Source of the DNA: Stellaceae bacterium | Lineage (GTDB): Bacteria > Pseudomonadota > Alphaproteobacteria > ATCC43930 > CGMCC-115725 | Direction of reading: 5' to 3' | DNA: 60,056 nucleotides | Assembly: GCA_035510075.1 (NCBI GenBank) | Contig: DATKHX010000117.1 | Location: forward strand, 1-60,056 | In this document: positions 6,440 to 36,493 of the stretch, piece by piece | Layout of the letters: the number at the start of each line of letters is the position of its first letter | Position numbering within the stretch: position 1 is the first letter of the stretch | Program-made: the position numbers and the translations under genes | Notes under the pieces: model-generated | Seen by the model: the letters and a program-made list of their open reading frames with translations, nothing else | Database searches by the model: none | Told to the model about the DNA's origin: nothing

Positions 6440-6486
6440 TGCATCGTCCTCGATTCGTTCCGGGGTAAGGCGCCGTCTCGGCTTGG

Positions 6487-10829: not shown

Positions 10830-10846
10830 TTCTCTCTCCGGAAAGG

Positions 10847-10866
10847 GACCCGCCGCACGGCGGGTC
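10847..10866 (-). terminator. Hairpin at the stop of the 990-aa gene
   Basis: GACCCGCC-GTGC-GGCGGGTC on the minus strand, followed by CCTTTCC (a weak U-tract). Confidence 0.35.
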
Positions 10867-20347: not shown

Positions 20348-22636
20348 TTATCGGGTGCGGCAGGCGAAGGTGCCACCAGTTTGAAGAGAGCTGGTGATGT
20401 TCGCATTGGTCACAGGCTGAGAATTGGCATTGATCGCTGTGTCCGACTCGGTGAACGCAAAATAGTTTGCATTGCCGGTGGCTGACCCCCACACCGGACC
20501 AGTAAGCCCCGTGGTAGGCGTCGTGCCATTGCCGAAATGGAAAACCGGCGCCAGCCCGAAATCGTCGATTCCCGGCACGCAGTTCAATGGCATGTTGCCG
20601 AGCTGCAGGTTGCCGGTCCCACTGCCCAGAGCGGACAACTGAAACCCGAAATCGACCATCATGTAGCCGTATTGGTCGATCCGAAAATGGCCGGTCGGCG
20701 AGGTCGAGAAGGTCATGCCAGAACTCGGCACGCCGTTCAGCAAGACCGTCGGCGTCCAAGTTCCCGAGAGCGTCGCCGCAGGAACGGCAACGCCAGCCGT
20801 GCCGTCCTGCTCCTCGACCAACAACAATCCGGCGACTGCGCCCAACCCATCGAGCGTGAAGTTCTGCCCGAAATATCCCGCGACGTAGCCAGTGCCAAGG
20901 TTGGTCGCGATCCCGTCCAGTCGCAAAAAGTCGGTGCCGACCCCGGCAACAATGACTGACAAATCGCTCGCCTGGTTTCGGAAATTAAGGCCGATGACCT
21001 GATTTACGGTATTGCCCCCGGTGGTTTGCTCGTCGACCCCGATCGTCGACCCGCCTATTTGGCCTCCGATGAATTCGTTTTCATGCGCATTGGCGTCTAA
21101 GTAAATGCAGCTGTCAGTAGTGACGAAATTGCCTTCGATCAAGGCATCGCATGACGCGTCGTGAAAGAAATTCCACAATGAATTCGTCGAAACGTAATAA
21201 CCCTTCTTATAGCCATACTCGAACATGTCGTGAAAATCGTTTTGGGTGCCCCCCGTAACCTTGACAAACGCGCCTGAGCGTCGCGTGCCATTAAGCACCA
21301 AATCGCCGCCCGAGGTGTAGGTTCCCAACGCAAAGGTGAGGGTAACGCTACTGCCGGCTGCGGTCGGGTAGTTGCTCAGCCAGACCCGATTATTGATCGG
21401 ATCAACCGCCATGACGGTTGTCCCGGACTGAATATTCGTCCCGCTAACAGCACCTCCAGGATTGATCCCCTGAATTGTAGTGCAGGATATCGCGTTATCC
21501 GTGCTGCCCCATGAGCAGGTATGCGTTAGGCCGGCGAACGCCGATCCTTGAAGATCGACGTGAGTCGAGTCGATGACGGTGATCGTCCATGTGTCGCCAT
21601 TGGCGCCGACCGCGCCCCCGACTCCCTCGATGGAGACGTTATTACCGGTGGCGAGGTCCGTGGTAGAGGTGACCGTCAGCCTTACTAACCCAGAGCCGTT
21701 ATTCGCGACGCCGGTGATCGCCTCTACGTCGAAGGGGATGTTGTTGACGTTGCCGCCGGTCCAAGACCAGCCGTGGACCTTTGAGATGTGGGCGACGTCA
21801 TAACTGTTCGCCAACAACAGGCCGGCAGTGTCGTCGATCAGCACGTCGTCCATTATCAGGCGCGCAAATCCGGTCGACGAAATACCTTGCGCAAACCCGA
21901 CGACGCCGCTGTGTGTAATGACCGCATGATCGGCGCCGATCGTTATGCCGGTCCCAGCAAAGGTCAAAACCTGCTGATAGTAGGCTTGCCCCGAGGCCGC
22001 AGGCCCCATCCCATAGGGCGCCACAAGAACGCCGTCGAGGTTCCCCGACAACGAAACCGTCTTGGTCGGGTTTATCAAGATCGCACCACCCGTCGTCGAC
22101 GCCCAGTTGACGGGGTTGGTCGCGGGATCGCCGGCGACCGGCCCCGAGCTGGCGACCGTGCAGCCCTGCGGCACCACCCAGTTGGCGGCCGAGTCGTGCG
22201 CGTAGCGGTGGTTGCCGATTAAGAGGCGCCCGCCGCCCGTCACCCTTCCACACCACGCCGCCGCGGCGTCGAGGGCGGTCGAGCTGTCGGTGCCGGTGAC
22301 GTTGCCGCTGCCGAGATCGACGGCCCCCCATTCGCCCACAGAGGCGCCCACTGCGGGGAAGGTGGCGATCCAGCACTTGCTGTCGGCGCTGGCGACCTGC
22401 GAGCCGTTGTCGCCGGCGCCGGCATTGAGCGAGCAGGCCGAATTGCTCGAGGCGTAGAGGACCTTTTCGGCGTCCCCGATCGTCGTAAAGCCGAGCCGCT
22501 CGACCCATGCCGCCTGCGTCGATTTGAGGGCGGCGAGCGCCGCGTTGTTGGGGACCCTTACGATGCCGTCGAATTCGGCGCGCGCCGCTTGTGCGCCAGC
22601 GACGAGCGCCACCAGTGCCGCGAATACATAGCGCAT
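20348..22636 (-). CDS. 762-aa beta-helix tailspike-like protein with a signal peptide and a low-GC core
   Basis: MRYVFAALVALVAGAQAARA/EF. GTDSSTALDAAAAWC resembles an N-cap. GC drops to ~40-55% in hand-counted lines around 21.1-21.5 kb. Confidence 0.75.
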   Translation of the reverse strand: MRYVFAALVALVAGAQAARAEFDGIVRVPNNAALAALKSTQAAWVERLGFTTIGDAEKVLYASSNSACSLNAGAGDNGSQVASADSKCWIATFPAVGASVGEWGAVDLGSGNVTGTDSSTALDAAAAWCGRVTGGGRLLIGNHRYAHDSAANWVVPQGCTVASSGPVAGDPATNPVNWASTTGGAILINPTKTVSLSGNLDGVLVAPYGMGPAASGQAYYQQVLTFAGTGITIGADHAVITHSGVVGFAQGISSTGFARLIMDDVLIDDTAGLLLANSYDVAHISKVHGWSWTGGNVNNIPFDVEAITGVANNGSGLVRLTVTSTTDLATGNNVSIEGVGGAVGANGDTWTITVIDSTHVDLQGSAFAGLTHTCSWGSTDNAISCTTIQGINPGGAVSGTNIQSGTTVMAVDPINNRVWLSNYPTAAGSSVTLTFALGTYTSGGDLVLNGTRRSGAFVKVTGGTQNDFHDMFEYGYKKGYYVSTNSLWNFFHDASCDALIEGNFVTTDSCIYLDANAHENEFIGGQIGGSTIGVDEQTTGGNTVNQVIGLNFRNQASDLSVIVAGVGTDFLRLDGIATNLGTGYVAGYFGQNFTLDGLGAVAGLLLVEEQDGTAGVAVPAATLSGTWTPTVLLNGVPSSGMTFSTSPTGHFRIDQYGYMMVDFGFQLSALGSGTGNLQLGNMPLNCVPGIDDFGLAPVFHFGNGTTPTTGLTGPVWGSATGNANYFAFTESDTAINANSQPVTNANITSSLQTGGTFACRTR

Positions 22637-22654: not shown

Positions 22655-23722
22655 CTACGAGATGATCCACTTCGTTCCGTCGTACTGGATGCAGGTGCTC
22701 TGGTAATTCTGGTTCATGATGAAAGTGGCGCCGCCGTCGATATTCCCCGCGGCGGGCGAGAGCGTGATGTTGTTGGCGGATGCGTCGCCTTTCCCATCCT
22801 TGACGCAGAGCCGGGTGCCCGGGGTCGGCGACGACACCAGGTTTACGGTGGTCGCGGCCCCGGTCGTCTTGTCGACCTCGATCGTGTTGTCGGTGGTCGC
22901 CATCGTCACCGCTCCGGACGCGGTGACGACCCGGACCGGCCCGACCTCGCCCGAGCCAAAGGTCGTGATCCCGCTCGTGCTCAGGGTCGTGAAGTGGGCC
23001 GCCGCCGGCGTGGTGCCGCCGATCGTGACGCCGTCGATCGTGCCCCCGGTAAACGCGACGGCGTTGGTCGCCATGAACGAATAGGTGCCGGCGCCGGTGC
23101 GGTTGACGAGGCCGGTCCCGGAAAACCCGGTGATGTTGTCGAGCGCCGTCCCCGAGGCCGATATCGAGCCGGTGCCGCCGAGCGCTACCGTAACCGGGGC
23201 GGTAATCGAGCAGGTGCCGGTCGTGGTGATCGTGCCGCCGCTGAGCCCGGTGCCGCAGGTGACCGAGGTCAGCGTGCCGACCGGGCTCCAGCTCGTGATG
23301 CCGGCGCCGTTGGTGGTGAGCGCGTTGCCGGAGGAGCCGTTTGCCGAGGGCAGCTGGAAGACGATGCCGGCGCCGGCCGCGGCGGCGACCTGGATGACGC
23401 CGGAGCCGCTCGTCGAGCCCTCGAGCGTCAAGGTGCCGCCGGTGCCGCCGTTGGCCCCCAGGGTCGGGGTCGAGGTGAAGGTCGGGTCGGCGCTCGCCAC
23501 ACCGGCGAGCAAGGTGCCGGCCCCGCCGGGGCCGACCTGGCCAAAGGCCGAGGTTCCTTCGCCGGTCAAGACCGCGTGTGCCGTCGCCGTCGTCAAGCCC
23601 GAGCCGCCGTTGACGACGAGCAGCGGGGGCGTCCCCATATAGGACGCCGCGGCCGGGGTTGTGGCGGTGCTGATCAGCGACCCGATCAGCGCCGCCGCTA
23701 CGAGGTGCCGTCCGGTGCGCAT
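22655..23722 (-). CDS. 355-aa fibre-like protein with a signal peptide
   Basis: MRTGRHLVAAALIGSLISTATTPAAA/SY. Gly/Thr-rich with NGGSG/LGGTG motifs. The C-terminal CVKDGKGD...MNQNYQ...YDGTKWIIS module is shared with 24055..24939. Confidence 0.75.
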   Translation of the reverse strand: MRTGRHLVAAALIGSLISTATTPAAASYMGTPPLLVVNGGSGLTTATAHAVLTGEGTSAFGQVGPGGAGTLLAGVASADPTFTSTPTLGANGGTGGTLTLEGSTSGSGVIQVAAAAGAGIVFQLPSANGSSGNALTTNGAGITSWSPVGTLTSVTCGTGLSGGTITTTGTCSITAPVTVALGGTGSISASGTALDNITGFSGTGLVNRTGAGTYSFMATNAVAFTGGTIDGVTIGGTTPAAAHFTTLSTSGITTFGSGEVGPVRVVTASGAVTMATTDNTIEVDKTTGAATTVNLVSSPTPGTRLCVKDGKGDASANNITLSPAAGNIDGGATFIMNQNYQSTCIQYDGTKWIIS

Positions 23723-23725
23723 GGC

Positions 23726-24070
23726 TCAGCGGCCCCGGCGATGGTGGAAATGCTCGGCGAGCCAGTCCCAGAGGCGGCCCCAGTAATCGGCCTTGGCCGC
23801 GGCGCCGATGACGTAATGCCGCCAGTAATCGGCGAGTGCGGCCGCACTCGCCTGCGCCGATTTGGACTCGTCGACGCGCCGGGTCTCGCTCAGCGCCAAC
23901 TCGTCGGAGACGCTGTTGCGCTCGATCATCAGCTGGCAGATCACGGTCGCGGTGCCGGGCGCGCACATCGGCGGCGGAAACTCGGCCGCGGCGCCGGCAC
24001 GCGCGGCCGGAGTGAGCGCGAGCAACGAAATTGCGGACGCGGCCCAAGCGAGCCTCAGATTATATCCCAT
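23726..24070 (-). CDS. 114-aa secreted protein
   Basis: MGYNLRLAWAASAISLLALTPAARA/GAAAEF. The start lies 16 nt inside the 3' end of the upstream gene. Confidence 0.5.
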   Translation of the reverse strand: MGYNLRLAWAASAISLLALTPAARAGAAAEFPPPMCAPGTATVICQLMIERNSVSDELALSETRRVDESKSAQASAAALADYWRHYVIGAAAKADYWGRLWDWLAEHFHHRRGR

Positions 24071-24939
24071 TGCGTTCCATCGAAGATGAAGCATCCGAAT
24101 TGCCGGGCCTGGTTCATCACGTAGCCGGTCGAGCCGGCGACGGCGTCGATCGCGGTGCCGTCGGTGGTCTTGATGGTGGCGGCGTTGGCCTGGAAGTTGT
24201 TGCCGCCGTCCTTTACGCACTGCACGAAATTCGCCGGCGGCGCGGCGGCGAGATCGACCGTGATCGGGGCGGCGACGCTCTGCCTGACGATTTCGATCAG
24301 GTAGTTGGTCGCCGGCAGGACGAGGGGGGTCGTCGTCAGCGTGTAGACCGAGGTCGACCACGCGACCCCGCCGCCCGTCGCCGACAATGTCTGCGCGCCA
24401 AACGCCCCGCTCAGCGACAACCCGGTGCCGACCGTCACCCCGCCAAAAGCAGACCCGTTGCTGCCCAAGAGATCGGCCGCCGCCGGAACGCTGCCGCCCG
24501 AGAAGAAGCCCAGCGCCAATGCGGTAGCCGGGGTCGCCGCGACGATCCGGAAATTGCCGTTGCCGTCATATTCGACGACCGCGATCTCGTTGTTCCCGGC
24601 GGCGGTCGAAAACGAGGTCGCCGAGGCCCCGCCTGATGTCGTCGGGTAGAGGATATGGCCGCCCGCGGTGCCGTTGACCTGGACCGTGACGGTATGCGCC
24701 GCGTCGTTCTCGACAGCGATCTGCCAGCCGCTCGCCGCCATGGCCGTCGTCGAGGGCAGGGTGACGGTCAGAGCGCCGCCGGCGTTGAGCGCCGAGATGA
24801 CCTTGTTGTCGTCGCCGAGCCCGGCGGCATAGCTGGCGCCGCCGGGATAGAGCCAGGTGCGGTCGAATGGCACCTGTTGCGCGCATGCCGCACCCGCCGC
24901 CGCGAGCGACAGCACGATGGCGAGGAGGAGCCTGATCAT
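24055..24939 (-). CDS. 294-aa fibre-like protein with a signal peptide
   Basis: MIRLLLAIVLSLAAAGAACA/QQ. Has two tip-like modules (TLPSTTAMAASGWQIA...VQVNGTAGGHIL and CVKDGGNN...FDGTQWDII). Confidence 0.75.
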   Translation of the reverse strand: MIRLLLAIVLSLAAAGAACAQQVPFDRTWLYPGGASYAAGLGDDNKVISALNAGGALTVTLPSTTAMAASGWQIAVENDAAHTVTVQVNGTAGGHILYPTTSGGASATSFSTAAGNNEIAVVEYDGNGNFRIVAATPATALALGFFSGGSVPAAADLLGSNGSAFGGVTVGTGLSLSGAFGAQTLSATGGGVAWSTSVYTLTTTPLVLPATNYLIEIVRQSVAAPITVDLAAAPPANFVQCVKDGGNNFQANAATIKTTDGTAIDAVAGSTGYVMNQARQFGCFIFDGTQWDII

Positions 24940-24942
24940 CGG

Positions 24943-25203
24943 TCACCCGCCGACCCAGGTTGATAACTGCGCGTTCCACACGAGGGTGCGGGTCGCCCCG
25001 TGCCCGGTGAGCGGCATCCCGGCGGAGCCGAGGTTTATCGTCTGCCCGGTATTGGGGGTCAGCGTCACGACGACTTGGGCCGCATTGGCGCCAATCAGCG
25101 TAAAGCGCCAAGTCTCCCCATCTTGCGGCCGGGGCCGTAAGATGGCGTTGAAGCTCCCGCCGCCCGCGGGCTCGAAGATCCGTAAGAACGCATTCGCCGC
25201 CAC
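24943..25203 (-). CDS. Hypothetical 86-aa tail-associated protein
   Basis: ORF directly after the host-specificity genes. No signal peptide. Confidence 0.6.
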   Translation of the reverse strand: MAANAFLRIFEPAGGGSFNAILRPRPQDGETWRFTLIGANAAQVVVTLTPNTGQTINLGSAGMPLTGHGATRTLVWNAQLSTWVGG

Positions 25204-25212
25204 ATCATCACG

Positions 25213-26034
25213 TCACAGGCTGATATTCGTGTTGGTGGTGATGACGTCGGTTTGGAAGCCCGGCCCCGGCAGGCTGCCGGACCCGGCCGGGGTGTAGGGA
25301 TAGGCCGTCGCCGCGGCAAGCGATTGCAGGCCGCCGCCGGTCGAATTGAACGACGGGAACTTGAATTCCAACGGCACCCCCGTGTATTGCGCCGGCAAGG
25401 GCTGCGCGAAATATTCGCCGCTGCCGAGATAGACGAACTGCGCGCCCAGCGCGTGGCTCGCGGCATCCGTCCCGTAGAGACCGCGATAGAGGGTCGTCAG
25501 GTGGTAGGCGCTGGCGCCGACGAGGCTCGCGGTCTCGAACGCCAGAAACTCGATTGGGCCGCCGCTCGCCTGCACCGCGCACAAGCTGACAAAGGCGGCG
25601 GCGCTCGTCGGGCTGACGCTCGCGAGCGTGCCCCTCGACTGGCTGAGGTCGACCGCGAGCGTGTCGGCGGTGTCGGGGTTGACCCCGCCATAGGCCGCGA
25701 GTGCCGCGGTGGTGAGCCCCATCGCCGACACCCCGAAAAAGGCGTCGTCGGCAAAAGGCTGGCCGTAATTCGTGCCGTCGAGCGATGCCCACACCTCGGC
25801 CCCGCCCCACAACGGGCTGTAGGCGCCGGCGGGGCCGCCGCTGAGCCCGACGATCAATGCCGGCCCGGCGACGCCGAGCGCTGCCAGCAATTGCTGCGTC
25901 GGCTCGACAAAAAAGGGCGGGTTCACGCTCGGTGCGGCGGCATTGTAGGCCGGAACCGAGGTGGTGGGTGCGGCCGCCTGGCGCGCGAAGAACGCGGGCG
26001 TGCCGATGCCGGCGCCGAGGCTCTTGACACCCAT
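25213..26034 (-). CDS. Host-specificity protein, C-terminal part (RcGTA g15-like, second ORF)
   Basis: 273-aa ORF starting 8 nt after the 571-aa ORF. Position and composition are consistent with a split J/g15-like protein. Confidence 0.6.
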   Translation of the reverse strand: MGVKSLGAGIGTPAFFARQAAAPTTSVPAYNAAAPSVNPPFFVEPTQQLLAALGVAGPALIVGLSGGPAGAYSPLWGGAEVWASLDGTNYGQPFADDAFFGVSAMGLTTAALAAYGGVNPDTADTLAVDLSQSRGTLASVSPTSAAAFVSLCAVQASGGPIEFLAFETASLVGASAYHLTTLYRGLYGTDAASHALGAQFVYLGSGEYFAQPLPAQYTGVPLEFKFPSFNSTGGGLQSLAAATAYPYTPAGSGSLPGPGFQTDVITTNTNISL

Positions 26035-26041
26035 TATGGGG

Positions 26042-27757
26042 TCAGGCCTGCGGGTATTGCACGGCCGCCGGCACGCCGAAAAAATCCTCCGCGGTGATGG
26101 CCAAGGTGCCCTCCTCGTCCTCGCTCACCCCGGTGATCCGCACCGTCAGATTGTCGAGGCCGAGGTAGGGGTCGCTCAGCTGCACCAAATCCATCGGTTC
26201 GAGGAGGCAGAATTTCCAACCGAGATTGAAGGTGTAGGTATTGCGGTAATAGAGATTGCGCTGCAGCACCAGCTGGGCCACGACCGGGCCGACATGCTGC
26301 ACGTCGACGATCGCGTTGCCCTTGACGCTGCTGTCTTTGCGGACCCCGTAGAGGTCGATCGCCCCCTGATCGAAGGCGACGACCGGCCATTTGTTGTACG
26401 AGTTCGAGCGGTCGACGCACTCGATCTCGACCCAGTTCGCGGCGTCGGCCGGCGAGGAGCGCTGCACGTGCACCGGGTCGTCGGTAAAGCCGCCGGTGAC
26501 CGGGGTCGCCCCTTGGCGCAATGCCGCGGTCCCGGGGGTAACCCCGAGATACGAGCCGACGGTCGATTCCTGGACGATGAAATCGTCGTCGTCGAGGCTG
26601 TAGACCGGGGTCGTGTAGGGCTGCCAGGAATAGGTCCCGAGCGGGCTGATCGTGGCGGTTTCGCCGCCGGCGCCGGAAAAGGTGACCCCGACCGCCAATG
26701 TGCCGGTGCCGGAATTGTCGAAGATCATCAGCCCGTTCGGTGCCACGCCGGCGTGCACGCCGAACGCCTGCAGGCCGCTCGCGTTGATCTGGCCGGCGAG
26801 CGCGCCGGTGAACGAGCTCATGTACAGGGTGTCGGCGTTGACGTTGGCGGCGCCGGCCGTGTAGGAGACCGCGACCGGCGAGCCGAGACCGGCGCCGGTA
26901 AAGGTCGCGGTGATCGTGTCGCCGCCGGCGACGGCCCCGGCGACCGTGATCAGCGTGAACGACGTGCTGAGCGGCATGTCCCCATAGGGGATGATCTTTA
27001 GCAGGCCCCCCGACCACACGATCGCCGAGTTGGTGATTTTTGCGATGTCGGCGAGCTGCTGCTGTGCCGGTATCTGGGTGTCGATCGACGGCGACAGCGC
27101 CACCCCCAAGGCCGTGCAATACTCCGAATAGCTCGTCAGGCTGTCGAGGTTCGCCGCCGGAAACCCGGCGCCGTAACGCGCATTGGTCAGAAAATCGCTG
27201 ACGATAAAGGCCGGGTTGGCGTCGGCGCCATTGAGCCAGGTCGACGAGCCGATGCCATAGACCTCGAACGTGAAATTCGGCAGCGAGGCCGAGGCGCCGA
27301 GGTTGTACTTGTCGAGCGTGATGTTGGCGGTGCCGGAATAGCCGATGGCATTGGGCGCGTGGTTGGTCACCCAATAGGGGTCGGCCGGCTGCCCGTCGGC
27401 GCCGAGATTTTTGGTCGACAACCCCAAGAGGTCGAGGAGTGCTCCGACGCTCTTGTTGTACCAGACCTCCCCGAACTGGGTTATCGGCCCCTGGCAGAGG
27501 CCGAGGATGACCGAGGCCGAGTACATCGTCTGCGACGACTTGCCGGCCTTCCCGGCGCTGCCGGCAGCGCCGCCCTTACCCTTTCCGGCGCTGCCGCCCA
27601 CGGCCTCGAAATCCTGGTAGTCGAGGACGTTCGGGCTGATGCGGGTGGTGCCATAGACGAGCGGGATGACGCTGCCCGCTTGCGAGGTCTGGAACCGCAG
27701 CGAGCCCGCGAGCTGCTGCTGCTTGGCGTTGGGGCCGATCCCCAGGATGTTGGTCAT
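26042..27757 (-). CDS. Host-specificity / central tail protein (lambda J / RcGTA g15-like, N-terminal part)
   Basis: MTNILGIGPNAKQQQLAGSLRFQTSQAGSVIPLVYGTTRISPNVLDYQDF is typical of the Phage-tail_3 family N-terminus. Follows the NlpC/P60 gene. Confidence 0.75.
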   Translation of the reverse strand: MTNILGIGPNAKQQQLAGSLRFQTSQAGSVIPLVYGTTRISPNVLDYQDFEAVGGSAGKGKGGAAGSAGKAGKSSQTMYSASVILGLCQGPITQFGEVWYNKSVGALLDLLGLSTKNLGADGQPADPYWVTNHAPNAIGYSGTANITLDKYNLGASASLPNFTFEVYGIGSSTWLNGADANPAFIVSDFLTNARYGAGFPAANLDSLTSYSEYCTALGVALSPSIDTQIPAQQQLADIAKITNSAIVWSGGLLKIIPYGDMPLSTSFTLITVAGAVAGGDTITATFTGAGLGSPVAVSYTAGAANVNADTLYMSSFTGALAGQINASGLQAFGVHAGVAPNGLMIFDNSGTGTLAVGVTFSGAGGETATISPLGTYSWQPYTTPVYSLDDDDFIVQESTVGSYLGVTPGTAALRQGATPVTGGFTDDPVHVQRSSPADAANWVEIECVDRSNSYNKWPVVAFDQGAIDLYGVRKDSSVKGNAIVDVQHVGPVVAQLVLQRNLYYRNTYTFNLGWKFCLLEPMDLVQLSDPYLGLDNLTVRITGVSEDEEGTLAITAEDFFGVPAAVQYPQA

Positions 27758-28183
27758 CTAAAACGGGTCGAAAAACCGCACCGCGCGGCAGGCGAGCGAG
27801 CCCTGTGTGGCGTCCCCCCAACAGACGAGCCGCGCGTCGGCCTGGGCGTGGACGATCCTGGGCCAGAGGACGACGATCGCGGCATGGGCAAAACAGCGCC
27901 CATAGCGCCACAGCGCGATGTCGGCCGGCTGCGGCGGCGGGTCGATCTCGCGCGCATAGGCGAGGAGGCCGTCGGCGTAACGCTCCTCGCCGCGGTGCAG
28001 GTGCCAATCGGGCGGATAGTACGGCAGCTCGATATGCGGCAGCACCCCGGCGCGCTCATAGACTTCGGCGAGGAGTGTGAGGCAGTCCGCACCGGCACCC
28101 TTCACCCGGCCCATGTGGTGATAGGGTGTCTTGAGCCAGGTTCGGGCCTCGGCAACGACCGCGGCGCGGCGCTGGTCAGTCAC
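27758..28183 (-). CDS. NlpC/P60-family tail peptidase (RcGTA g14 / lambda K-like)
   Basis: ARTWLKTPYHHMGRVKGAGADCLTLLAEVY...FAHAAIVV carries the Cys-His catalytic pattern. GTG overlaps the upstream stop. Confidence 0.8.
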   Translation of the reverse strand: MTDQRRAAVVAEARTWLKTPYHHMGRVKGAGADCLTLLAEVYERAGVLPHIELPYYPPDWHLHRGEERYADGLLAYAREIDPPPQPADIALWRYGRCFAHAAIVVLWPRIVHAQADARLVCWGDATQGSLACRAVRFFDPF

Positions 28184-29252
28184 GGCCGGGATGGCGGCGA
28201 TGCGGCGGCTCGGGGTGATGATGGCGGTGTGGCGGATGATGGGGATGCGACACCGGCGGGTCGCGCGGCGGGGGTGCCGGCGGGTGGCCCGGCCGGTGAA
28301 ACGCGGCGAACCCCTCGCCATTGTCGTCTTCCCAGCGCATCCGCAGATACTGGTCCCATTCGAGCTCGAGTGCCGGCTTGTTGCCGGCGAATTCGAGCAC
28401 ACCCCAGGTGTTGCGCTTCAGATCCGTCATCGGGTCGAACCCGTGGCGCAGAAACATCTGCCAGCGGTCCCAATATTGGCGGTTTTGCTTCGCACCGTGA
28501 AAGCGGTGCTCGATCGTGCCGGGCACATAGCCGATCCGGCCGTTGACCGCGTGCGTAGCACGCTTTTCCCAGGCCTCGAGGAGGACGCGGTAAGCGGGCG
28601 AGATCGTCTTCGGGAACGAGCTCTTGACGCGGCCCAGCATCGCCACCGCCTGGTGGTGGTCGGCGGCACCCATCCCGCCGTATTCGAAGAGCCCGCCGAC
28701 CTCGTTCAGCACCGAGCGCTTGGCCGCCCAGCAATAGCCGGTATGCGGGTAGTCGTGCTCCCCGCCCCAAAATTTGTGAAAGTCCTCGCCCTCGCCGACG
28801 ACGATCGGGTGGCCGTGCAGGTATTGGCGGGCGAACGAGCGCCAGACATGCGCGTGACTGTCGCCGGGGCCGAGGTCGTAGCAGGTCTCCCACGGCTGCA
28901 CCACGTGGTAGTGCTGCAATGCGTCGAGCGTGGCCTCGACCCAGTCGTTGCGGCGCGGGAAGACGTCGCTGTCCGCCCAGCAGACGTATTGCGCCTCCGG
29001 GCGGCGCTGGATGCCGAGGTTGAGGAGGCACTCTTTGGCCCACGCCCAGGAATCGGCGCGGACCCCGATGTGGTGGACGACGCCGGGAATTGCGCAGACC
29101 CACGGCGCCTCGCCATAGGCGCATTCGACGACCGTGACCTCGGCGCCGAGCTCGCGCATGCGATGGGCCCAGTCGAGATAGTGCCGCTGCGGCTGGCGCC
29201 AGCGCAGCGGGTTGAACCGCGCCGTAAAGACATGCAGCACCGGGGTCGTCAT
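28176..29252 (-). CDS. Putative GT-A-fold glycosyltransferase with a C-terminal His/Pro-rich tail
   Basis: VFTARFNPLRWRQPQRHYLDW..., a DxD-like WADSDVF, HVVQPW and HRFHGAKQNRQYWDRW are read as a nucleotide-sugar transferase-like family. The tail is HRPGHPPAPPPRDPPVSHPHHPPHRHHHPEPPHRRH. Confidence 0.5.
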   Translation of the reverse strand: MTTPVLHVFTARFNPLRWRQPQRHYLDWAHRMRELGAEVTVVECAYGEAPWVCAIPGVVHHIGVRADSWAWAKECLLNLGIQRRPEAQYVCWADSDVFPRRNDWVEATLDALQHYHVVQPWETCYDLGPGDSHAHVWRSFARQYLHGHPIVVGEGEDFHKFWGGEHDYPHTGYCWAAKRSVLNEVGGLFEYGGMGAADHHQAVAMLGRVKSSFPKTISPAYRVLLEAWEKRATHAVNGRIGYVPGTIEHRFHGAKQNRQYWDRWQMFLRHGFDPMTDLKRNTWGVLEFAGNKPALELEWDQYLRMRWEDDNGEGFAAFHRPGHPPAPPPRDPPVSHPHHPPHRHHHPEPPHRRHPGRD

Positions 29253-30109
29253 ACGGCGGTCTCCGGAGGCGGGATGAACGGCATGCCGCCGAAATGGACG
29301 GCATTGTTGAAGGTGTTGGTGCAGGTCGCGAGCATGTGGTCGCAGCCCGGCAGGATCTCGAACTGGTCGCCGGTGCCGACCGGCGACAAAAAGGCGAGCT
29401 TGACGCTGATGCTGCCCCCCGACTGAAACCCGAAGATCGTGCGCGTCTGCCCGGAATTGGCGCCGCTCTTGCCGCTGATCGATCCTTGCGCGAAGGGGGT
29501 CGTCGTCACCGGCGCGCCATTGATCGAGGTCTGCGACGAGCCGGCGCCGGCGCCAAACGTCAGCGCCAGGCTCGGCCGCGAGAACTGGCACATCGCGTCG
29601 CCAAAGACGTGGTTGCACGCCGCCTGGTAGAGCCGTCGCGGCATCGGGATGTTGAGCAATTCGAGGTGCGAGCGGCATTTCATGTCGATGCCGGAGCGGG
29701 TGCAGTCGAGGTCCGACACCCGGCCGGCGAAGAGCACCACCGTTCCCGGGCTGGTGTCGCCCCAGCCGGCGGCGAAAAACGCGCGCTCGACCTGTAGGAG
29801 CGCGCCGTCGAGCGCGCCGGTCCATGCCGCCTCCAAAAACGGCGTGGCGCCGATCGTGTCGGTTGCGGTCGGGTAAATCTTGACGTCGAGCTGGTCGACC
29901 TGGGTCCCGATGACGGTATTGATCAGCGAGCGCTCGAATTTGGGGCCGAGCGGAAAGACCCGCCCGGTGGCGAAATCGACGATTTGGGTCAGCGCGCCCG
30001 AATAGCGCAGGACCGTGCCGCCCTGAAGCGTGAAGGTGTAGAGGTCGGCCATCTGGAACTGGGCGCCGCCGTTCAGCAGTGCAATCAGGGTCGAGGACGC
30101 TTGCTTCAC
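29249..30109 (-). CDS. DUF2163 / BR0599-type tail hub protein (RcGTA g13-like)
   Basis: The C-terminal CDHMLATCTNTFNNAVHFGGMPFIPPPE signature fits. GTG start overlaps the upstream stop (GTGA). Confidence 0.8.
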   Translation of the reverse strand: MKQASSTLIALLNGGAQFQMADLYTFTLQGGTVLRYSGALTQIVDFATGRVFPLGPKFERSLINTVIGTQVDQLDVKIYPTATDTIGATPFLEAAWTGALDGALLQVERAFFAAGWGDTSPGTVVLFAGRVSDLDCTRSGIDMKCRSHLELLNIPMPRRLYQAACNHVFGDAMCQFSRPSLALTFGAGAGSSQTSINGAPVTTTPFAQGSISGKSGANSGQTRTIFGFQSGGSISVKLAFLSPVGTGDQFEILPGCDHMLATCTNTFNNAVHFGGMPFIPPPETAV

Positions 30110-31296
30110 GGCGGCACCGAAATAAACGCCAACTTTTTTAGCGCCCACAATTGCAGCATGAAGTTCTCAAAGCTGATGCTGTCATCGGCAAAGCGGCATC
30201 GGAAGAAATACGAGAAATCCGCCGATAGCGCCGGCTGGCTGCCGACAAAGGGCTGCGGCAGCGACACGAGGCCGGTTGCGGGATCGACCGGCCAGCCGGC
30301 GACATTGCTCCACAACAGGTTCGCGGTGCACCCCGAGCCGCTGCCGGTGACGCTGGTGAACGGCACTGCGGCGGAGGGTGGGGTCCCGAGATAGAGCCCG
30401 CCATTCGAGACGCCGAGCGAGGTGACGGCGCCGCCGCTCACACTCTGGACAAAGAGCGAGGCGGCGAGCGGCGGTCCTGCGATCGTCGGCGAGAGCTGGT
30501 CGCCGATGTTGTAGCCGCTCCCGCCCGCGACGATCCCGGTGTTGATCAATGTGACCTGCGGCACACCGGCGAAATAAAGCGCGGCGACCTTGTTGGGGGC
30601 GGTGATCGGCTCGTTGAAAAACGGGCCGACACCAAGCCCGCGCTGCAATTGGACGCTCGTCACCCAGGTGAGGTTTACGGTGGCGCCCGAGCCGCCGCCC
30701 GTCACCGTCGTCAACGGCACGCCGCTCGTGCCGGGCACGGTGTAATAGATGCCGCCGAGGCTCGGCCCGAGATTGGTGATCGCGCCACCGCCGCCGACGC
30801 TGTTGACGATCAGCGAGGCGGCAAGCGGCGGCGAGCCGCCGGTGGGCGAGAGCTGGTCGCCGATGTTGTAGCCGCTCCCGCCCGCGGCCGGGAACGAGGC
30901 CGAGACATAGCTCGTCGCCAGCGGCAACGGCTGCCCCGTGACCTGGTCGTCGCTCGGGTCGTCGAACAGAAACGTGCGAAAGGCAGCGCCGCAGGCGAGG
31001 TAGAACCCGAAGAGTGTGCGCAGCTCGTCGTAGTTGCCGACGGCCCCAAAACCCCGGCCGCGGCTGTCCCAACGGTCGCGCAGCACCTCGAAGGTCAGCG
31101 AGAACTGCCACAGCGGGTAGGGGTAATCCTGCAGCCGCAGCTCGCGGCCGGAGACCGCGCGCTGGATGCGCGTCTGCATCGTCGGCGCTTTGGTGACGCT
31201 CCACCCGATGCCGGGGAGGATCGTGAGCGGGCTGCCGGACAGCGGGCTGATCGCGAGGCCGCCGGCGGCGATCGCCATGATGCCGACGTCGGTCAT
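30106..31296 (-). CDS. DUF2460-type distal tail protein (RcGTA g12-like) with an inserted duplicated domain
   Basis: The ends match DUF2460 (PGIGWSVTKAPTMQT...; FYFRCRFADDSISFENF). The middle carries two ~78-aa repeats (GGSGYNIGDQLSPT...). Confidence 0.75.
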   Translation of the reverse strand: MTDVGIMAIAAGGLAISPLSGSPLTILPGIGWSVTKAPTMQTRIQRAVSGRELRLQDYPYPLWQFSLTFEVLRDRWDSRGRGFGAVGNYDELRTLFGFYLACGAAFRTFLFDDPSDDQVTGQPLPLATSYVSASFPAAGGSGYNIGDQLSPTGGSPPLAASLIVNSVGGGGAITNLGPSLGGIYYTVPGTSGVPLTTVTGGGSGATVNLTWVTSVQLQRGLGVGPFFNEPITAPNKVAALYFAGVPQVTLINTGIVAGGSGYNIGDQLSPTIAGPPLAASLFVQSVSGGAVTSLGVSNGGLYLGTPPSAAVPFTSVTGSGSGCTANLLWSNVAGWPVDPATGLVSLPQPFVGSQPALSADFSYFFRCRFADDSISFENFMLQLWALKKLAFISVPP

Positions 31297-31309
31297 CAGC
31301 TGGGGGTCA

Positions 31310-34300
31310 TCAGCCGGGGGTCAGCATCGAGCCGCGGCGGATCGCAGTATTCAATGCCGCGACCAGCGCCGAGCCGTTCGCCATGAAGAGCCGCTGCACC
31401 GAGGCCGCATCGGTCGCGTTGATGTTGATGCCGAAGGAGTTGCCGCCGCCGCCGCCGCCGTTGGCGATCATGCCTTGCAGCCCCTGGCTGATATTCGCCG
31501 GCAAGACCATCTCGTTCGAGTGCAATTGTGCGAGGGTGCCTCCCGGCCCGAGCTGCGGCACGGCCCAGCCGCCCGCCGCCGACGGCACGATCCCCCCCTT
31601 CGAGAACGCGAAGAGCGAGCCGAGGCCCTTGAACAAGGTGCCGAAGAGGCCGCTGAAGAGGCCGCCGCCCCCGACATCGGCCGCTGCGCCGATGCCGCCC
31701 GAGAAGTCCTGGTCGGCGGCACCCGAAGCGCCGCCAAAGAGGCCGCCGAGGAGGCCGCCCGAGCCCGCGGAGAACGGGTTGCCGACGGCGCCCGCGAGCC
31801 CCTCGCCGAAAATGTCCTTGCCGAGGCTGTCGAAAATCCCGCCGCCGACGCCGCCGCCCGAACCGCCGCCGACCCCGAGCGCCGAGCTGAAGAGGCTCTT
31901 GAAGGCGCTGTTGAGCGTGTCCTTGACGAGGCTTTGCGCCAATTGGTCGAACGCCTGGCCGATCGACTTCGTGCGCAGGACGACATCGGTCGCCATGGCG
32001 GCGAACGCGTCCGACACCTGCTTGATGCTTTCCTGCCAGCTTTTCGCGGTGTCCTGCGCCGTCTTCGCCTGGGCCTCGCTGATCTTGGCGGTATAGCTCG
32101 CGTCGAGCTCGACGAGCTCGTCATAGAGCCGCTGCTTTTGCGCCGTCGTCAGCCGGTCGTCCGCCATCATGATTTCGAGGCGGCGGCGCTCCTCGGCGTA
32201 GAGCTTGGCGGTGTACTCGATCTCAAAGCCGATCGCCTGCTGCGTCGAAATCTTATGCTCGGCGACGAGCTGCGCCATGTTGGCCTTGAAGACCGCGAGA
32301 TAGGAGGTGTCCTCGCTTTTGAGCGAGGTGTATTTCTGCTGGGCGAGCTGGATCGCGGCCGCGACCTCCTCGTGGTCGAGGCGCACCTTTTCGGCGGTGA
32401 CCGAGGCCGTGCTGGCCTTGTCCTCGGCGAGCATCGCGAGCTTCTTGTCGAGGAGCGCGCGGGCGGCAGCGAAATCCTGCTGGTACTCGGCCTGCCTGAT
32501 CTGCGCCTCGAGCTCGGCATATTGCTGCTCGCGCGCGACGCGGCCGGCCTCGGGGTCGAACCTCGCGGCGGTGCTGCCGGTGCCGGACCCGACCCCGCCG
32601 CCCGCCGCGATCTGGGTGGCGAGCGCCTCGCGGGCCGGCCCCGTCGTGTCCTTTGACCCCGGGATTTCGTAGCCGGAATAGACGATTTTGGCGGCCGACG
32701 CGGCGTCCGCCGCCCTATTCGCGGTGTGAAAGACGCCGGCGAACTTGCCTTGCAGCTCCTTCACGAGAAAATCGACCTGGCCCTGGAGCGTGTTCCACGC
32801 CGGGCCTTCGGCGGCCTTCAACTGCGCCAGCCGGTCTCCGGTCCACTGCGCGATCCCGGTGGCGCCGCTCGGGTTGACGGCATCCGGGCTGATGCCGCTC
32901 TCGGCCTTGAGATTGGCGAGAACCCCCGCCACGGTGTTGGCGGACGCGCCGATCTTGGCGAGGGCGTCGGCGACGATCGCGGCGTTGCCGGAGAGGTTCG
33001 CGATCGCGTTGCCGGCGAACGAGGCGCCCTCGCGCCCCGAGGCCCCGGCCGGGGCAGGTGCCGTCACCGAAACTTCGGGCAGGCTCACCTCGGCGGGTGC
33101 CGCGGGGCGCCCCGCATCCGTCAACCCCAGGGGCGACGCCCCCGGGACGAGCGAGGGCGCGTTGGCGGGCGGGACGATCCCGAGATGCTGCAGAAGCGTA
33201 TTATTTTGAAGCTGCTGCCAACCGCTCGCGAACGCGTTCCACACCGTCTTCAGATTGTCGATGTCGGTCTTGGTCGCGTCGATGGTCCCGTGGATCGCGT
33301 CGAAAAAGCTCTTGAACGCCGCGGTGGCAGCGCCCGAATTCGTAATCGTCTCGACAAACGCCTTCAACGACGTGGTGGTGGCGTCGATCGGCTCCTTGAA
33401 GTCGAGAAGGATGTGCGATTTGAGGCCGGTAATGGCCAATTCGAGCTCGTGGACCTTTTCCCAGGTGTCCGACAGCGCTTCGATCTGCGCGTCGTTGAGA
33501 TTGGCCCCGCTCGCCTCGGCCGCCTGCTTGACCTTTTCAAACTCCTCGGCGGTCAGGCTCAGAACGGGTGCGAGCTGGGTGATGCCGCGCGGCCCGACGA
33601 GGCTGCGGAAGATGTCGAGGCGATTGACGCTCCCCGCCATGTTCTGCCAGGTCTGGCGCAAGAGCTCGATCGTGTCGATCGGGTCCCGCAGCGCTTCTTT
33701 CAGCGCGGCCATGTCGATGCCGGCGGCGCGGATCGCCTGGCCCTGGTCGGAGAGCGGCTTGTTGAGACCGAGCTCGAGCTGGTGCCCGAGCTGGGTGACG
33801 ATGCGGATCAGGTTTTGACTCTCGCCGCCGGCGAGCAACGAGATGTTCTGGAACTCCGACAGGCGTTCCGAGCTGGTGCCGAGCGACTCCGCCAGGATCT
33901 TGGTCCGCTCCGCGCCCTCGGTGATCTCCTCGACCCATTCAGAGATCTTCTCGAAGGCAAAGGCGGCCCCGGTGACCTCGAGGATGCCGGCCATCCCTTG
34001 GCGGAAGGTGTCGATCGGGCTGCGGGCGCGCTCGACCTCCTCCTTGACATTGGCAAAGCTGCGGGCGAGGAGCGAGCCCTCGGTGGCGGCCCCGTTCAGC
34101 TCCTTTGTCAAGGCCGAGGCCTTGGCGCGGGCCTCCTCGAATTGCCCTGCCGCCTGGCGCAAATTGTCGTTGGCGCCGATACCGCCGCCGCTTCTGGCGT
34201 CGGCCGCAGCCTGCCGCAACGCGGTGCCGAGCGCTTTGACGTCGGCCTGGACGAGGGCGAGCTGGGCGCGCGCCTCGGCGGTGTCGGCGCGGACCGCGAT

Positions 34301-34318
34301 CGACAGGTTCGAGGCCAT
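31310..34318 (-). CDS. Tail tape measure protein with an internal lysozyme-like domain
   Basis: 1002 aa, helical and Ala/Gln-rich. SGATGIAQWTGDRLAQLK...QVDFLVKEL resembles the phage tail lysozyme domain. C-terminus is Gly-rich. Confidence 0.85.
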   Translation of the reverse strand: MASNLSIAVRADTAEARAQLALVQADVKALGTALRQAAADARSGGGIGANDNLRQAAGQFEEARAKASALTKELNGAATEGSLLARSFANVKEEVERARSPIDTFRQGMAGILEVTGAAFAFEKISEWVEEITEGAERTKILAESLGTSSERLSEFQNISLLAGGESQNLIRIVTQLGHQLELGLNKPLSDQGQAIRAAGIDMAALKEALRDPIDTIELLRQTWQNMAGSVNRLDIFRSLVGPRGITQLAPVLSLTAEEFEKVKQAAEASGANLNDAQIEALSDTWEKVHELELAITGLKSHILLDFKEPIDATTTSLKAFVETITNSGAATAAFKSFFDAIHGTIDATKTDIDNLKTVWNAFASGWQQLQNNTLLQHLGIVPPANAPSLVPGASPLGLTDAGRPAAPAEVSLPEVSVTAPAPAGASGREGASFAGNAIANLSGNAAIVADALAKIGASANTVAGVLANLKAESGISPDAVNPSGATGIAQWTGDRLAQLKAAEGPAWNTLQGQVDFLVKELQGKFAGVFHTANRAADAASAAKIVYSGYEIPGSKDTTGPAREALATQIAAGGGVGSGTGSTAARFDPEAGRVAREQQYAELEAQIRQAEYQQDFAAARALLDKKLAMLAEDKASTASVTAEKVRLDHEEVAAAIQLAQQKYTSLKSEDTSYLAVFKANMAQLVAEHKISTQQAIGFEIEYTAKLYAEERRRLEIMMADDRLTTAQKQRLYDELVELDASYTAKISEAQAKTAQDTAKSWQESIKQVSDAFAAMATDVVLRTKSIGQAFDQLAQSLVKDTLNSAFKSLFSSALGVGGGSGGGVGGGIFDSLGKDIFGEGLAGAVGNPFSAGSGGLLGGLFGGASGAADQDFSGGIGAAADVGGGGLFSGLFGTLFKGLGSLFAFSKGGIVPSAAGGWAVPQLGPGGTLAQLHSNEMVLPANISQGLQGMIANGGGGGGNSFGININATDAASVQRLFMANGSALVAALNTAIRRGSMLTPG

Positions 34319-34320
34319 GC

Positions 34321-34703
34321 CTACCCCGCCTTTAGCGCCTGGTGCTTTTCTTTGAGCACCGCGAAATCGATGATGCCCGGCGCCCCGAGGCCGTCATGCA
34401 GCGGGCGCTCGCCGACCGCGAACTGGCCCGACAACGCGAGCTCGGCCGCCTCGTGGTCGGCGATCGGGGCATGAAGCGGGGGGCTCCCCGGCGGGTTCTC
34501 CCGATTGGGGCCGGCGCGGCGCGGCTCGACCCCGAGAAACGCCGCCAGCAACACATGCACCGGCGGGTGGTCTTCCCAATAGTCGAAAAGGTCCTGGACC
34601 TGATGGAGGGTCAGCCCGTCGATGTCTCCGGGCCGGTAGCCGCAGGCGGTGGCGAGGAGCCCGTAGAGGCCGGCCCAGTCCTCGCCGCCGCGGCTTCCCC
34701 CGC
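34321..34703 (-). CDS. Tail assembly chaperone -1 frameshift extension (GT-like)
   Basis: The -1 frame is open from ~34749. It encodes EDWAGLYGLLATACGYRPGDIDGLTLHQVQDLFDYWEDHPPVHVLLAAFLG... and ends 2 nt before the tape measure ATG. Confidence 0.6.
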
Positions 34704-34994
34704 TTGCGCCGGGCGCAGCCCCGACCCGGTCAGGACCGCGCGCAGGGTCTCAAAGACGTTGCCGGCGTCGAGCAGCTCGCCCTCGAGCGTCGCCGCGGTG
34801 ATCTCGGGGTAATTGCGCTGCAATGCCGGCAGGATGATCCGTGCCGCGGCATCGGTGCGGGCCTCGAGCGAGGCTTCCTCGCTCTCGCAGGTCGCGCGGT
34901 CCGCTTGCGACTCCCGGATTTGGGCGATCGTCAATGGCGCAACGATCCATTCGCTGCCGCCCATCTCGATCGGGACGCCCTTGATCTTCGCCAT
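34611..34994 (-). CDS. Tail assembly chaperone (G-like; RcGTA g10-like)
   Basis: 127-aa ORF between the major tail and tape measure genes. Its 3' end is overlapped by a second open frame. Confidence 0.7.
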   Translation of the reverse strand: MAKIKGVPIEMGGSEWIVAPLTIAQIRESQADRATCESEEASLEARTDAAARIILPALQRNYPEITAATLEGELLDAGNVFETLRAVLTGSGLRPAQAGEAAAARTGPASTGSSPPPAATGPETSTG

Positions 34995-35009
34995 CGGCGC
35001 GCTCCGCCC

Positions 35010-35777: not shown

Positions 35778-35778
35778 T

Positions 35779-36051
35779 TCAAACTCCGCTCAGCGCCGCG
35801 AGGCGGCGTTTCAAATCCTCTTTGGCGGTAAAGGCGACGTTCCACGCCGCGGTGTCGCGCGCCACCGCCGACCCGGGGAAGTTGTCGCTCCACCAGGCCT
35901 CGATCGCGCCGTCGATCGCCATCCAGGCGATCGGAGCCGACGGGGGAGCCGCTACGGTGGGGGTTTCGGGTTTGCCGGGCTCGACAGGCGCTGGGGCCGC
36001 CGATGGCGCGCCCACGGGCTCTGGAGACGGTTTCTGGTCGATCTCGCTCAT
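35779..36051 (-). CDS. Hypothetical protein with a Pro/Ala-rich N-terminus
   Basis: 90-aa ORF tightly packed between the tail terminator-like and major tail genes. Confidence 0.55.
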   Translation of the reverse strand: MSEIDQKPSPEPVGAPSAAPAPVEPGKPETPTVAAPPSAPIAWMAIDGAIEAWWSDNFPGSAVARDTAAWNVAFTAKEDLKRRLAALSGV

Positions 36052-36479: not shown

Positions 36480-36493
36480 GGGCCTCCCCTCGC

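Follow-up and report, generated by a model that had tools for sequence, protein, structure and literature searches.

What does a glycosyltransferase (GT)-like gene do between two genes for the tail tip of a phage? This question is raised by a contig of 60,056 nucleotides assigned to a Stellaceae bacterium (Alphaproteobacteria; DATKHX010000117.1, assembly GCA_035510075.1), which we analysed over its whole length and refer to as the window. Its distal tail genes correspond to g12 to g15 of the gene transfer agent of Rhodobacter capsulatus (RcGTA), and a gene for a protein of 358 residues lies between the g13-like and g14-like genes (Table 1). The original prediction, made from the sequence without database searches, had read this protein as a GT-A-type enzyme with an unusual C-terminal tail and its gene as an insertion into a normally contiguous block, and it had proposed virion proteins, exported fibre-like proteins or host surface polysaccharides as acceptors. 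The answer that we favour, with a probability of roughly 40%, is that the enzyme would glycosylate virion proteins.

The gene, its predicted fold and its C-terminal tail

The open reading frame (ORF) is a real gene and not a chance frame. Its coordinates and strand were reproduced, and the translation, from the N-terminal MTTPVLHVFTARFNPLRW to the C-terminal HPGRD and the stop codon, contains all the motifs that had been quoted for it (FNPLRWRQPQRHYLDW, WADSDVF, HVVQPW and HRFHGAKQNRQYWDRW). The translational coupling proposed on both sides can be read directly from the DNA. On one side, the ATG of the GT gene (29252-29250), with a GGAG located 8 nt 5' of it, overlaps the TGA of the upstream gene (29251-29249). 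On the other side, its TGA (28178-28176) is inside GTGACTGA, the GTG of which (28183-28181) is the start of the downstream 141-aa gene. Independent gene callers agree on these boundaries in other assemblies, where a gene of 358 aa overlaps the following one of 141 aa by 8 nt, and an identical GT protein is encoded on five contigs of 56-60 kb from independent metagenome assemblies. The GC content at third codon positions (GC3) is 0.87 in the GT frame, versus 0.68 and 0.45 in the two remaining frames.

The window protein matches no profile of Pfam, PHROGs or NCBIfam, and as PF00535 does not match it even at E<=10, it falls outside that curated model. A match to MmaA1 among PDB sequences (E 0.13) was taken as chance. 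The evidence for its fold comes from a structure model and from its relatives. An AlphaFold2 model built from 41 sequences has a mean predicted local distance difference test (pLDDT) score of 87.9 and a predicted template modelling (pTM) score of 0.83, with residues 1-310 modelled confidently (mostly >90). Foldseek returned 217 matches in the PDB at E<=1e-3, and the 50 top-ranked ones, as listed, are without exception GT-A enzymes, with a probability of 1.0. The structural neighbours include a Leptospira GT (6p61), WrtF (9oml), the chondroitin polymerase K4CP (2z86), GtrB (9nyf), COLGALT1, TarS (5tzi), TarP (6h4m), GpgS (4dec), B4GalT1 and ppGalNAcT. The PDB matches share 9-15% identity with the window protein, and their query-normalised template modelling (TM) scores are modest (0.3-0.43). 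A viral structure library yielded 199 matches, mostly annotated as GT-A or GT2, two of which are true family members (26-27% identity, TM-scores of 0.72-0.76), one of them from Yasminevirus. PF00535 itself weakly matches 21 of the 41 family members (best E 1.2e-6).

The predicted active site is consistent with this fold. D94 and D96 of the DxD motif are invariant (41/41 and 15/15 sequences) down to 33% identity, jumbo-phage and plasmid copies included. In the model, they come directly after strand 89-93, which is where GT-A enzymes canonically have this motif (after strand 4). They would hold a divalent cation and the nucleotide diphosphate (NDP)-sugar. D198, in GMGxxDHH, is also invariant to 33% identity, as are H249 and H252 in EHxFHG. 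The sole match of the family profile in the PDB is to a ceramide glucosyltransferase of family GT21 and has a borderline E (0.012). It places D198 opposite the Asp of an ED motif (AED) and was used as a hint for this residue only. In GT2-like enzymes, the Asp of the ED motif is the catalytic base, a role for which D198 is a candidate. H249 and H252 are candidates for a third metal ligand or for acceptor-site histidines, the former role being suggested by general GT-A chemistry.

Taken together, the model, the Foldseek matches and the invariant motif bear out a GT-A fold with its DxD in WADSDVF, and the window protein is in all likelihood a GT-A glycosyltransferase, its enzymatic activity being predicted. 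It resembles the GT2-like GT-A enzymes of the PF00535 clan in its predicted Rossmann-like fold, in its DxD after the fourth strand and in the alignment of D198 with the ED motif. It differs from them in its low identity and in the invariant motifs of its own C-terminal half (~130-310), namely PHxGYxW, GMGxxDHH, EHxFHGxKxxRxY and YLRxRxED. Any assignment to a CAZy family such as GT2, and to an inverting or a retaining mechanism, is tentative: the window protein itself has no curated GT profile match, and 10 of the 41 relatives weakly match GT34, a retaining family.

The homologues of the protein form 690 clusters in a database at 90% identity, nearly all of them unnamed. A profile search of 1.84 billion cluster representatives at 50% identity found 5,032 relatives, 1,589 of which at E<=1e-30. 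They are mostly of ~310 aa, and the match is full-length (1-310) in thousands of them; multidomain relatives are fused to GT2, GT8 or NodZ-type fucosyltransferase domains. The window protein has no hydrophobic or transmembrane segment (the maximum Kyte-Doolittle value over 19 residues is 1.19). We thus regard it with high confidence as a soluble and, by prediction, metal-dependent member of a distinct, undescribed GT-A family. Its members are almost all labelled 'hypothetical', the ~5,000 clusters are not covered by a model of Pfam, PHROGs or NCBIfam, and our literature search found no paper on these enzymes or on GTs encoded in RcGTA-type tail modules. The fold and the chemistry are of an ordinary kind; what is new is that a large GT-A family of mobile elements has gone undescribed, and it merits a profile model of its own.

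The unusual His/Pro-rich tail is real as well. Beyond the conserved end of the family (...EDDN), the window protein has 46 residues, of which 15 are Pro and 11 are His (57% for both, versus 11.5% in the core), and pLDDT values of 52-65 predict that they are disordered. Such tails are confined to the nearest clade (~70-83% identity), and the members of 311-313 aa stop at ...EDDN. In this clade, the tails vary in length (20-70 aa) but share their composition and a core F-x-R-P...HHxP...PP[V/I]SHP, although some of them end in (W)PPGPPxGS instead. The tail might have been a by-product of an extended g14 frame, which is open back to 28402 and, in the tail region alone, has a higher GC3 than the GT frame (0.93 versus 0.77), as expected from the first positions of Pro, His and Arg codons. 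This was ruled out, because the PP[VI]SHP tail is kept at both positions of the gene in this clade, between g13 and g14 and before the tail-tube gene. As it is conserved in loci where no g14 follows, the tail belongs to the enzyme and the GT frame is translated. It might be speculated that this disordered appendage binds metal or docks the enzyme onto assembling tails.

Positions of the gene and cargo of the tail block

The canonical RcGTA-type module has no gene between g13 and g14. We compared the 80 closest relatives of g13 from viral contigs (58-99% identity), 75 of which have both g13 and g14 visible. The two genes abut in 58 of these 75 loci, and the GT gene does therefore interrupt a normally contiguous junction, as had been proposed. 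It lies between g13 and g14 in six loci, and other inserts of 188-3,509 nt occupy the junction in 11. Among the 58 abutting loci, five carry the GT gene ~400 bp upstream of the tail-tube gene instead, and at least 12 have no GT gene anywhere in the covered region. A further pre-tube copy, which brings their number to six, is found in L188, where a small gap separates g13 from g14 and which is counted among the 11. A neighbour-joining tree groups the clade of the window protein, with its g13|GT|g14 order, as sister to that of the pre-tube copies.

These data bear on whether the protein is a regular, non-catalytic structural component of the tail. Such a role would account for the tight coupling of its gene to those of the hub and the peptidase, and for the recurrence of the g13|GT|g14 order in a second, distant clade, devoid of the Pro/His tail, in which g13 is only 33-36% identical to that of the window and the GT still 47-50%. 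Nevertheless, 58 of the 75 close g13 relatives do not have the gene at the junction, sister phages carry it elsewhere or lack it throughout the covered region, chromosomal and plasmid copies exist, and the catalytic motifs are invariant. Present at the junction in 6 of 75 loci, the gene is not a regular conserved member of the tail module, and we rejected a structural role on this distribution as close to refuted.

A census of 169 loci that carry the GT gene widens the picture. In myovirus-like prophages, it lies between the gene of a 207-aa head protein and that of a 269-aa protein (49/169 loci), with a gap of typically 15-140 nt to the head gene upstream and mostly 15-25 nt downstream. Elsewhere, it is found between tail fibre and lysis genes (26/169), between g13 and g14 (21/169), before the tail-tube gene (8/169), next to the terminase gene (6/169), immediately behind the major capsid gene in phages of a third type (5/169) and next to g12 (2/169). 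Another 21 loci are plainly cellular neighbourhoods, and 31 are unclassified. In three phage architectures, at least seven positions are thus known for the gene. A subset of 80 loci comes from GTDB genomes, which had not been pre-selected for viruses. Of these, 42 belong to late-gene blocks of phages and have the GT gene in the orientation of the structural genes, 20 are cellular and 18 are unclassified. The insertion between g13 and g14 hence stands, but not as a one-off event: it is seen in 21 loci belonging to two divergent GT clades, in addition to at least six other phage positions and to copies on chromosomes and plasmids.

The patchy presence of the gene, its variable positions and the divergent clade with the same g13|GT|g14 order argue for mobile cargo that tends to persist once placed, rather than for a core structural gene. 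The flanking genes match the RcGTA-type module in order, and the GT gene, judged by sequence comparison, is not part of that module; it is very probably a mobile accessory cassette at a hot spot. In this respect it recalls morons in the sense of Hendrix and colleagues, which are accessory genes between conserved late genes, the classic ones with a promoter and a terminator of their own. The GT gene is similar to morons in its patchy presence, its variable position in late operons, its occurrence in unrelated phage architectures and its chromosomal homologues. It differs from them in overlapping both neighbours and in having neither a sigma-70-like promoter nor a terminator of its own.

The GT-A gene is not the only GT gene of this block. 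In L202 and L204, the insert between g13 and g14 (9958-11013 in both loci) is an ORF of 351 aa with a GT4-like ETFNIVAADSVAAGVPTVVS motif and a weak match to PF20706. It has 2,738 homologues with PF13692, PF00534 and PF20706, some of which are named 'glycosyltransferase family 1 protein' by NCBI, and these names and domains identify it as a GT-B enzyme (family 1/4) unrelated to the GT-A family. In L174, which has the closest g13 relative of the window (78% identity), a relative of this GT-B (11136-12470) is part of a 3.5-kb insert between g13 and g14; the other ORFs of this insert were checked for a sugar pathway and have no Pfam or PHROG match. Between g12 and g13, GT-B relatives are found in L219 (7944-8981), in L227 (7956-8945) and in L181 (4105-5144), where the match is in two pieces, as if frameshifted. 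In total, six sister loci have a GT-B gene at one or the other of these junctions.

The distal tail block, at both g12|g13 and g13|g14, is a general hot spot for cargo. The presence of two non-homologous GT classes in one tail-tip block suggests that this phage lineage selects for GT activity during the production of tails or virions, and we consider this shared use of the block by GT-A and GT-B enzymes as the most telling clue from the context. The recurrent replacement by GT-B points to the same need for GT activity.

Other genes are found in the block as well. Collagen-triple-helix-repeat genes are present between g13 and g14 in L222 (8697-9703), a gap of ~1.2 kb is found there in L225, and the inserts of further loci are smaller (188-432 nt). 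In a metagenome-assembled genome (MAG), L141, a GT gene between g12 and g13 ends after 192 codons (6001-6579); it is likely a pseudogene, or else the result of an assembly frameshift. In seven loci from MAGs of Acetobacteraceae (L110, L111, L115, L117, L123, L126 and L165), the GT gene directly follows a gene for a 765-aa protein without a Pfam match, which has Gly-rich N-terminal repeats and a GQSNAGNG motif recalling SGNH or sialate-O-acetylesterase enzymes. This gene may be the remnant of a fibre gene, or its product may be a partner of the GT. Members of the family are present in two cultured strains, which makes experiments feasible; in Roseiarcus fermentans DSM 24875 (L148; NZ_QNRK01000007.1, ~122-135 kb), the copy is in a prophage, between tail genes and a gene without a Pfam match that is similar to putative endolysin genes of other loci.

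Possible acceptors of the enzyme

When the enzyme is made and what it can draw on narrow the range of its possible acceptors. A scan of 24000-36500 (12.5 kb) with a sigma-70-type consensus only revealed no promoter-like site, and no terminator flanking the GT gene was found in the same interval. As the gene also overlaps both neighbours, the GT would be made late, together with the hub, the peptidase and the other tail-tip proteins, and these overlaps make such co-expression probable. Pfam scans of the larger ORFs of the genome, with the small ORFs only partly covered, revealed neither an NDP-sugar synthesis gene nor a second glycosyltransferase or methyltransferase. Since no sugar-activation gene was detected among the scanned phage ORFs, the enzyme would need an NDP-sugar of the host, from which it would add a single sugar, or processively a few of them, to an acceptor that is present late.

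We favour one or several virion proteins of the tail tip, the fibres or the capsid as this acceptor, which would result in glycosylated particles. This preference draws on context and precedent. The gene is embedded in structural operons in all three phage architectures, the same tail block of sister phages contains a GT-B gene, and GTs of actinobacteriophages are reported to modify virion proteins. Embedding in the virion-gene operons of at least three architectures points to a GT activity that is needed while virions are built. To our knowledge, virion glycosylation has not been described before in phages of Gram-negative hosts.

In actinobacteriophages, GTs modify capsid and tail-tube proteins (Freeman et al. 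2023, cited in PMC11256854, PMC11600133 and PMC13313380). As presented in these citing papers, the virions of Che8, Corndog and cluster O phages are glycosylated, with 2-4 GT genes per system and an additional O-methyltransferase in cluster O, and the GT genes of cluster F1 are located near the right genome end and not in the tail-tip block. What these systems have in common with ours is the co-occurrence of phage GT and virion genes, with a single GT gene in the tail-tip operon here. As described in the same papers, they rely on cytoplasmic GTs using NDP-sugars of the host, and they represent our favoured functional model. They differ from the window phage in their actinobacterial hosts and in their clusters of several GT genes with an O-methyltransferase gene; the window genome has one GT gene, and glycosylation of its virions is a prediction. 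We found no sequence relationship between the GT family and the actinobacteriophage GTs. The presence of a single GT implies a simpler modification.

Several observations weigh against virion acceptors. In tblastn searches, the tail-tube protein spans the same length (~248 aa) in sister phages with and without the GT gene, so there is no obvious acceptor extension similar to that reported for mycobacteriophages. Some copies of the GT gene are outside any structural operon. Among the 20 cellular copies of the GTDB set, one is located between purB and ggt and another adjoins a GT1_4 gene. The chromosomal copy of Rhodoblastus acidophilus DSM 137 (L159:2275-8838) is surrounded by MltB-like (SLT_2), PAP2, GHMP-kinase and pirin genes. 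The INPHARED database contains one distant homologue, annotated as hypothetical, in a non-structural region of the Xanthomonas jumbo phage XaC1 among small hypothetical genes, and PLSDB contains five copies, all annotated as hypothetical, on plasmids of Burkholderiaceae, where PRTRC and toxin-antitoxin genes are neighbours. In such settings, the plasmid and XaC1 copies, which are 32-35% identical to the window protein, cannot glycosylate virions. Moreover, conservation is at least as high in the acceptor-side half of the protein as on the donor side, which hints, from the alignments, at a common acceptor other than a virion protein.

Such observations would fit an enzyme that acts on the host envelope, adding a sugar to a host glycoconjugate on the cytoplasmic side of the membrane. 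The acceptor might be an undecaprenyl-linked O-antigen, an exopolysaccharide or lipopolysaccharide-core intermediate, or a precursor of peptidoglycan or of a wall polymer. By altering the phage receptor, the modification could cause superinfection exclusion or lysogenic conversion, or it could spare the progeny adsorption to debris, in parallel with TarP, which is encoded by prophages, or with soluble GT2 enzymes for O-units. The homologues on chromosomes and plasmids must act on something cellular, and conservation of the acceptor-side residues over phage, plasmid and chromosomal copies fits a cellular acceptor such as a lipid-linked glycan. The MltB-like and PAP2 genes beside the Rhodoblastus copy are envelope genes, and the copy that abuts a GT1_4 gene points in the same direction. 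TarP, TarS, GtrB, ArnC and WfgD-like enzymes, which are structural neighbours of the window protein, act on lipid-linked or polymer acceptors, and the 26 loci with the gene between tail fibre and lysis genes represent a classic moron site.

The tail-tip location speaks against an envelope target. As the gene overlaps two tail genes and has no transcription signals of its own, its expression in a lysogen would entail that of g14 and g15, and late-only expression would leave little time to remodel the cell surface. The protein has neither a membrane segment nor an amphipathic anchor, no flippase or GtrA/GtrC-type partner was recognised among the scanned ORFs, many ORFs being without assignment, and the gene is 24 kb away from that of the integrase. 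A comparison with known surface-modifying GTs gives the same mixed picture. TarP of Staphylococcus aureus prophages is a GT-A enzyme (GT2) that is borne by temperate phages and is soluble, like the window protein. GtrB of the GtrABC cassettes is a GT-A enzyme (GT2) as well, but it has C-terminal membrane helices, which the window protein lacks, and acts with GtrA and GtrC, partners that were not recognised among the scanned ORFs. The genes of GtrB-type cassettes are located near the integrase gene and attachment site (int/att), unlike the window GT gene with its hub and NlpC/P60 neighbours, and conversion genes are expressed in lysogens, unlike a gene that is translationally coupled to tail genes. 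Classical Gtr-type seroconversion is thus disfavoured, and we consider envelope modification at large to be unlikely, although it is the main alternative. If it were true, the family would represent a widespread, overlooked class of late-expressed surface modifiers.

The breadth of the family, found in siphovirus-like and myovirus-like prophages, jumbo phage XaC1, Burkholderiaceae plasmids and Yasminevirus, would also suit an enzyme of conflict or anti-defence, which would disarm a host function by glycosylating a host protein, a nucleotide-derived signal or a small molecule. Glycosylation of host proteins by GT-A enzymes is known from clostridial toxins and NleB/SseK. However, no consistent defence or anti-defence neighbour was seen, the PADLOC library not having been searched. 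Anti-defence genes are typically early, in contrast to the phage copies of the GT gene in late structural operons, and the fusions of relatives to glycan-building GT domains are typical of oligosaccharide assembly. Altogether, such a role is improbable.

Even less probable by far is a role in DNA glycosylation, in which modified bases would be decorated before packaging as a protection against restriction, as by the T4 glucosyltransferases or the GT-A-like base-J glucosyltransferase. Late expression is compatible with modification before packaging, mom of phage Mu being a late gene, and a universal acceptor would suit the spread of the family over phages and plasmids. The complete genome, however, speaks against this role. 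Positions 1-141 of the window are identical to positions 59916-60056, a direct terminal overlap of 141 bp that is the hallmark of circular contigs assembled with k=141. The window therefore represents a complete phage genome of ~59.9 kb. In this genome, the scans of the larger ORFs revealed no dCMP/dUMP hydroxymethylase, TET/JBP, DpdA or other hypermodification gene, some small ORFs being unscanned. Moreover, there is no DNA glycosyltransferase among the structural matches, and stand-alone chromosomal copies would be hard to account for.

Returning to virion glycosylation, a broader reading can be tentatively proposed, which we regard as doubtful. In phages of Alphaproteobacteria from acid soil and peat, glycosylation of the virion by the phage itself might be routine and concern mainly the tail tip, with the g12|g13|g14 region as a dedicated slot for interchangeable, non-homologous GTs (of this GT-A family or of GT-B family 1/4), and the Pro/His tail might target the enzyme to assembling tails by docking or metal binding. 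If virion proteins are the target, particle glycosylation, so far documented for actinobacteriophages, would also occur in phages of Proteobacteria and would matter for their host range, for particle stability in acidic soils and for phage annotation. On the broader reading, a family of ~5,000 clusters would gain a function.

Neighbouring genes and the phage genome

The coordinates of the GT gene, its elements and its neighbours are collected in Table 1.

Table 1. Features of the GT gene and of the surrounding tail-tip region in the window
Feature	Position	Strand	Basis
Predicted GT-A-fold glycosyltransferase gene, 358 aa + stop	28176..29252	minus	ORF translation, AlphaFold2 model, Foldseek, homologues
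ATGA overlap, GT start / stop of g13-like gene	29249..29252	minus	read from sequence
GTGACTGA overlap, GT stop inside start of g14-like gene	28176..28183	minus	read from sequence
Predicted catalytic GT-A domain, residues 1-312	28317..29252	minus	conserved family-wide, alignments A1 and A2
DxD motif, D94-S95-D96 within WADSDVF	28965..28973	minus	invariant, alignments A1 and A2
H249-R-F-H252 within EHRFHG	28497..28508	minus	H249, H252 and G253 invariant family-wide
Pro/His tail, predicted disordered, residues 313-358, PPVSHP at residue 332	28179..28316	minus	composition, pLDDT, conservation
g13-like baseplate hub gene, upstream neighbour	29249..30148	minus	PF09931 (E 2e-30), PF09356 (E 1.7e-18)
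g14-like NlpC/P60 cell-wall peptidase gene, downstream neighbour	27758..28183	minus	TIGR02219, phrog_329
g12-like distal tail gene (DUF2460)	30106..31296	minus	PF09343 (E 1e-23, two stretches)
g15-like host-specificity gene (Phage-tail_3)	26042..27757	minus	PF13550 (E 3.9e-25)
Gene with Rcc01698-like C-terminal domain, continues the g15 region	25213..26034	minus	PF23666 (E 4.9e-18)

The RcGTA-type flanks named by the original prediction were matched by profile searches, in their families and in their canonical order. The match of the g14-like gene to TIGR02219 (E 4.4e-14, 53.1 bits) is under the curated cutoff of 81.9, and its match to phrog_329, a minor tail protein, has an E of 7.6e-11. In the g12-like protein (396 aa), two copies of a ~100-aa module starting with GGSGYNIGDQLSPT...PPLAASL split the DUF2460 halves. 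This duplicated module may be a display or carbohydrate-binding insertion, comparable to those of 'evolved' distal tail proteins.

The window is the complete, circularly assembled genome of a temperate siphovirus, and near-identical contigs of 56-60 kb are present in other assemblies. Its head module is of the HK97 type, with TerL, portal, S78 protease and capsid protein genes. The tape-measure protein carries a lysozyme domain, and many fibre- or spike-like genes in a row come after the RcGTA-type tail tip. The set of temperate and recombination functions comprises a tyrosine integrase, a serine recombinase, an S24 repressor, ERF, YqaJ and an exonuclease. The genome thus has two recombinase genes, that of the tyrosine integrase at 3158-4345 (plus strand) and that of the serine recombinase/resolvase at 47879-48625 (minus strand).

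Several late genes downstream of the tail tip have features of their own. Three fibre-like proteins (20348-22636, 22655-23722 and 24055-24939, all on the minus strand) start with the signal-peptide-like sequences MRYVFAALVALVAGAQAARA, MRTGRHLVAAALIGSLISTATTPAAA and MIRLLLAIVLSLAAAGAACAQ, which is unusual for virion proteins. They have no Pfam match and no significant PHROG match (one at E 0.0095). The 990-aa product of another late gene (10865-13837, minus strand) has no match at all. A protein of 1,233 aa (16636-20337, minus strand) has a beta-helix similar to those of pectate lyases and rhamnogalacturonases and is a probable tailspike depolymerase. Elsewhere in the genome, a 254-aa protein (53435-54199, minus strand) has both a GapR-like DNA-binding domain (E 8e-8) and a ribosome-modulation-factor domain (E 2e-6), an odd fusion for the early region of a phage. 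Finally, the gene of a 255-aa protein (38555-39322, minus strand) is located between the capsid gene and the head-tail adaptor genes. Its product shows weak matches to a concanavalin-A-like lectin domain and to a SO2946-like C-terminal domain, and it may be a head decoration or glycan-binding protein.

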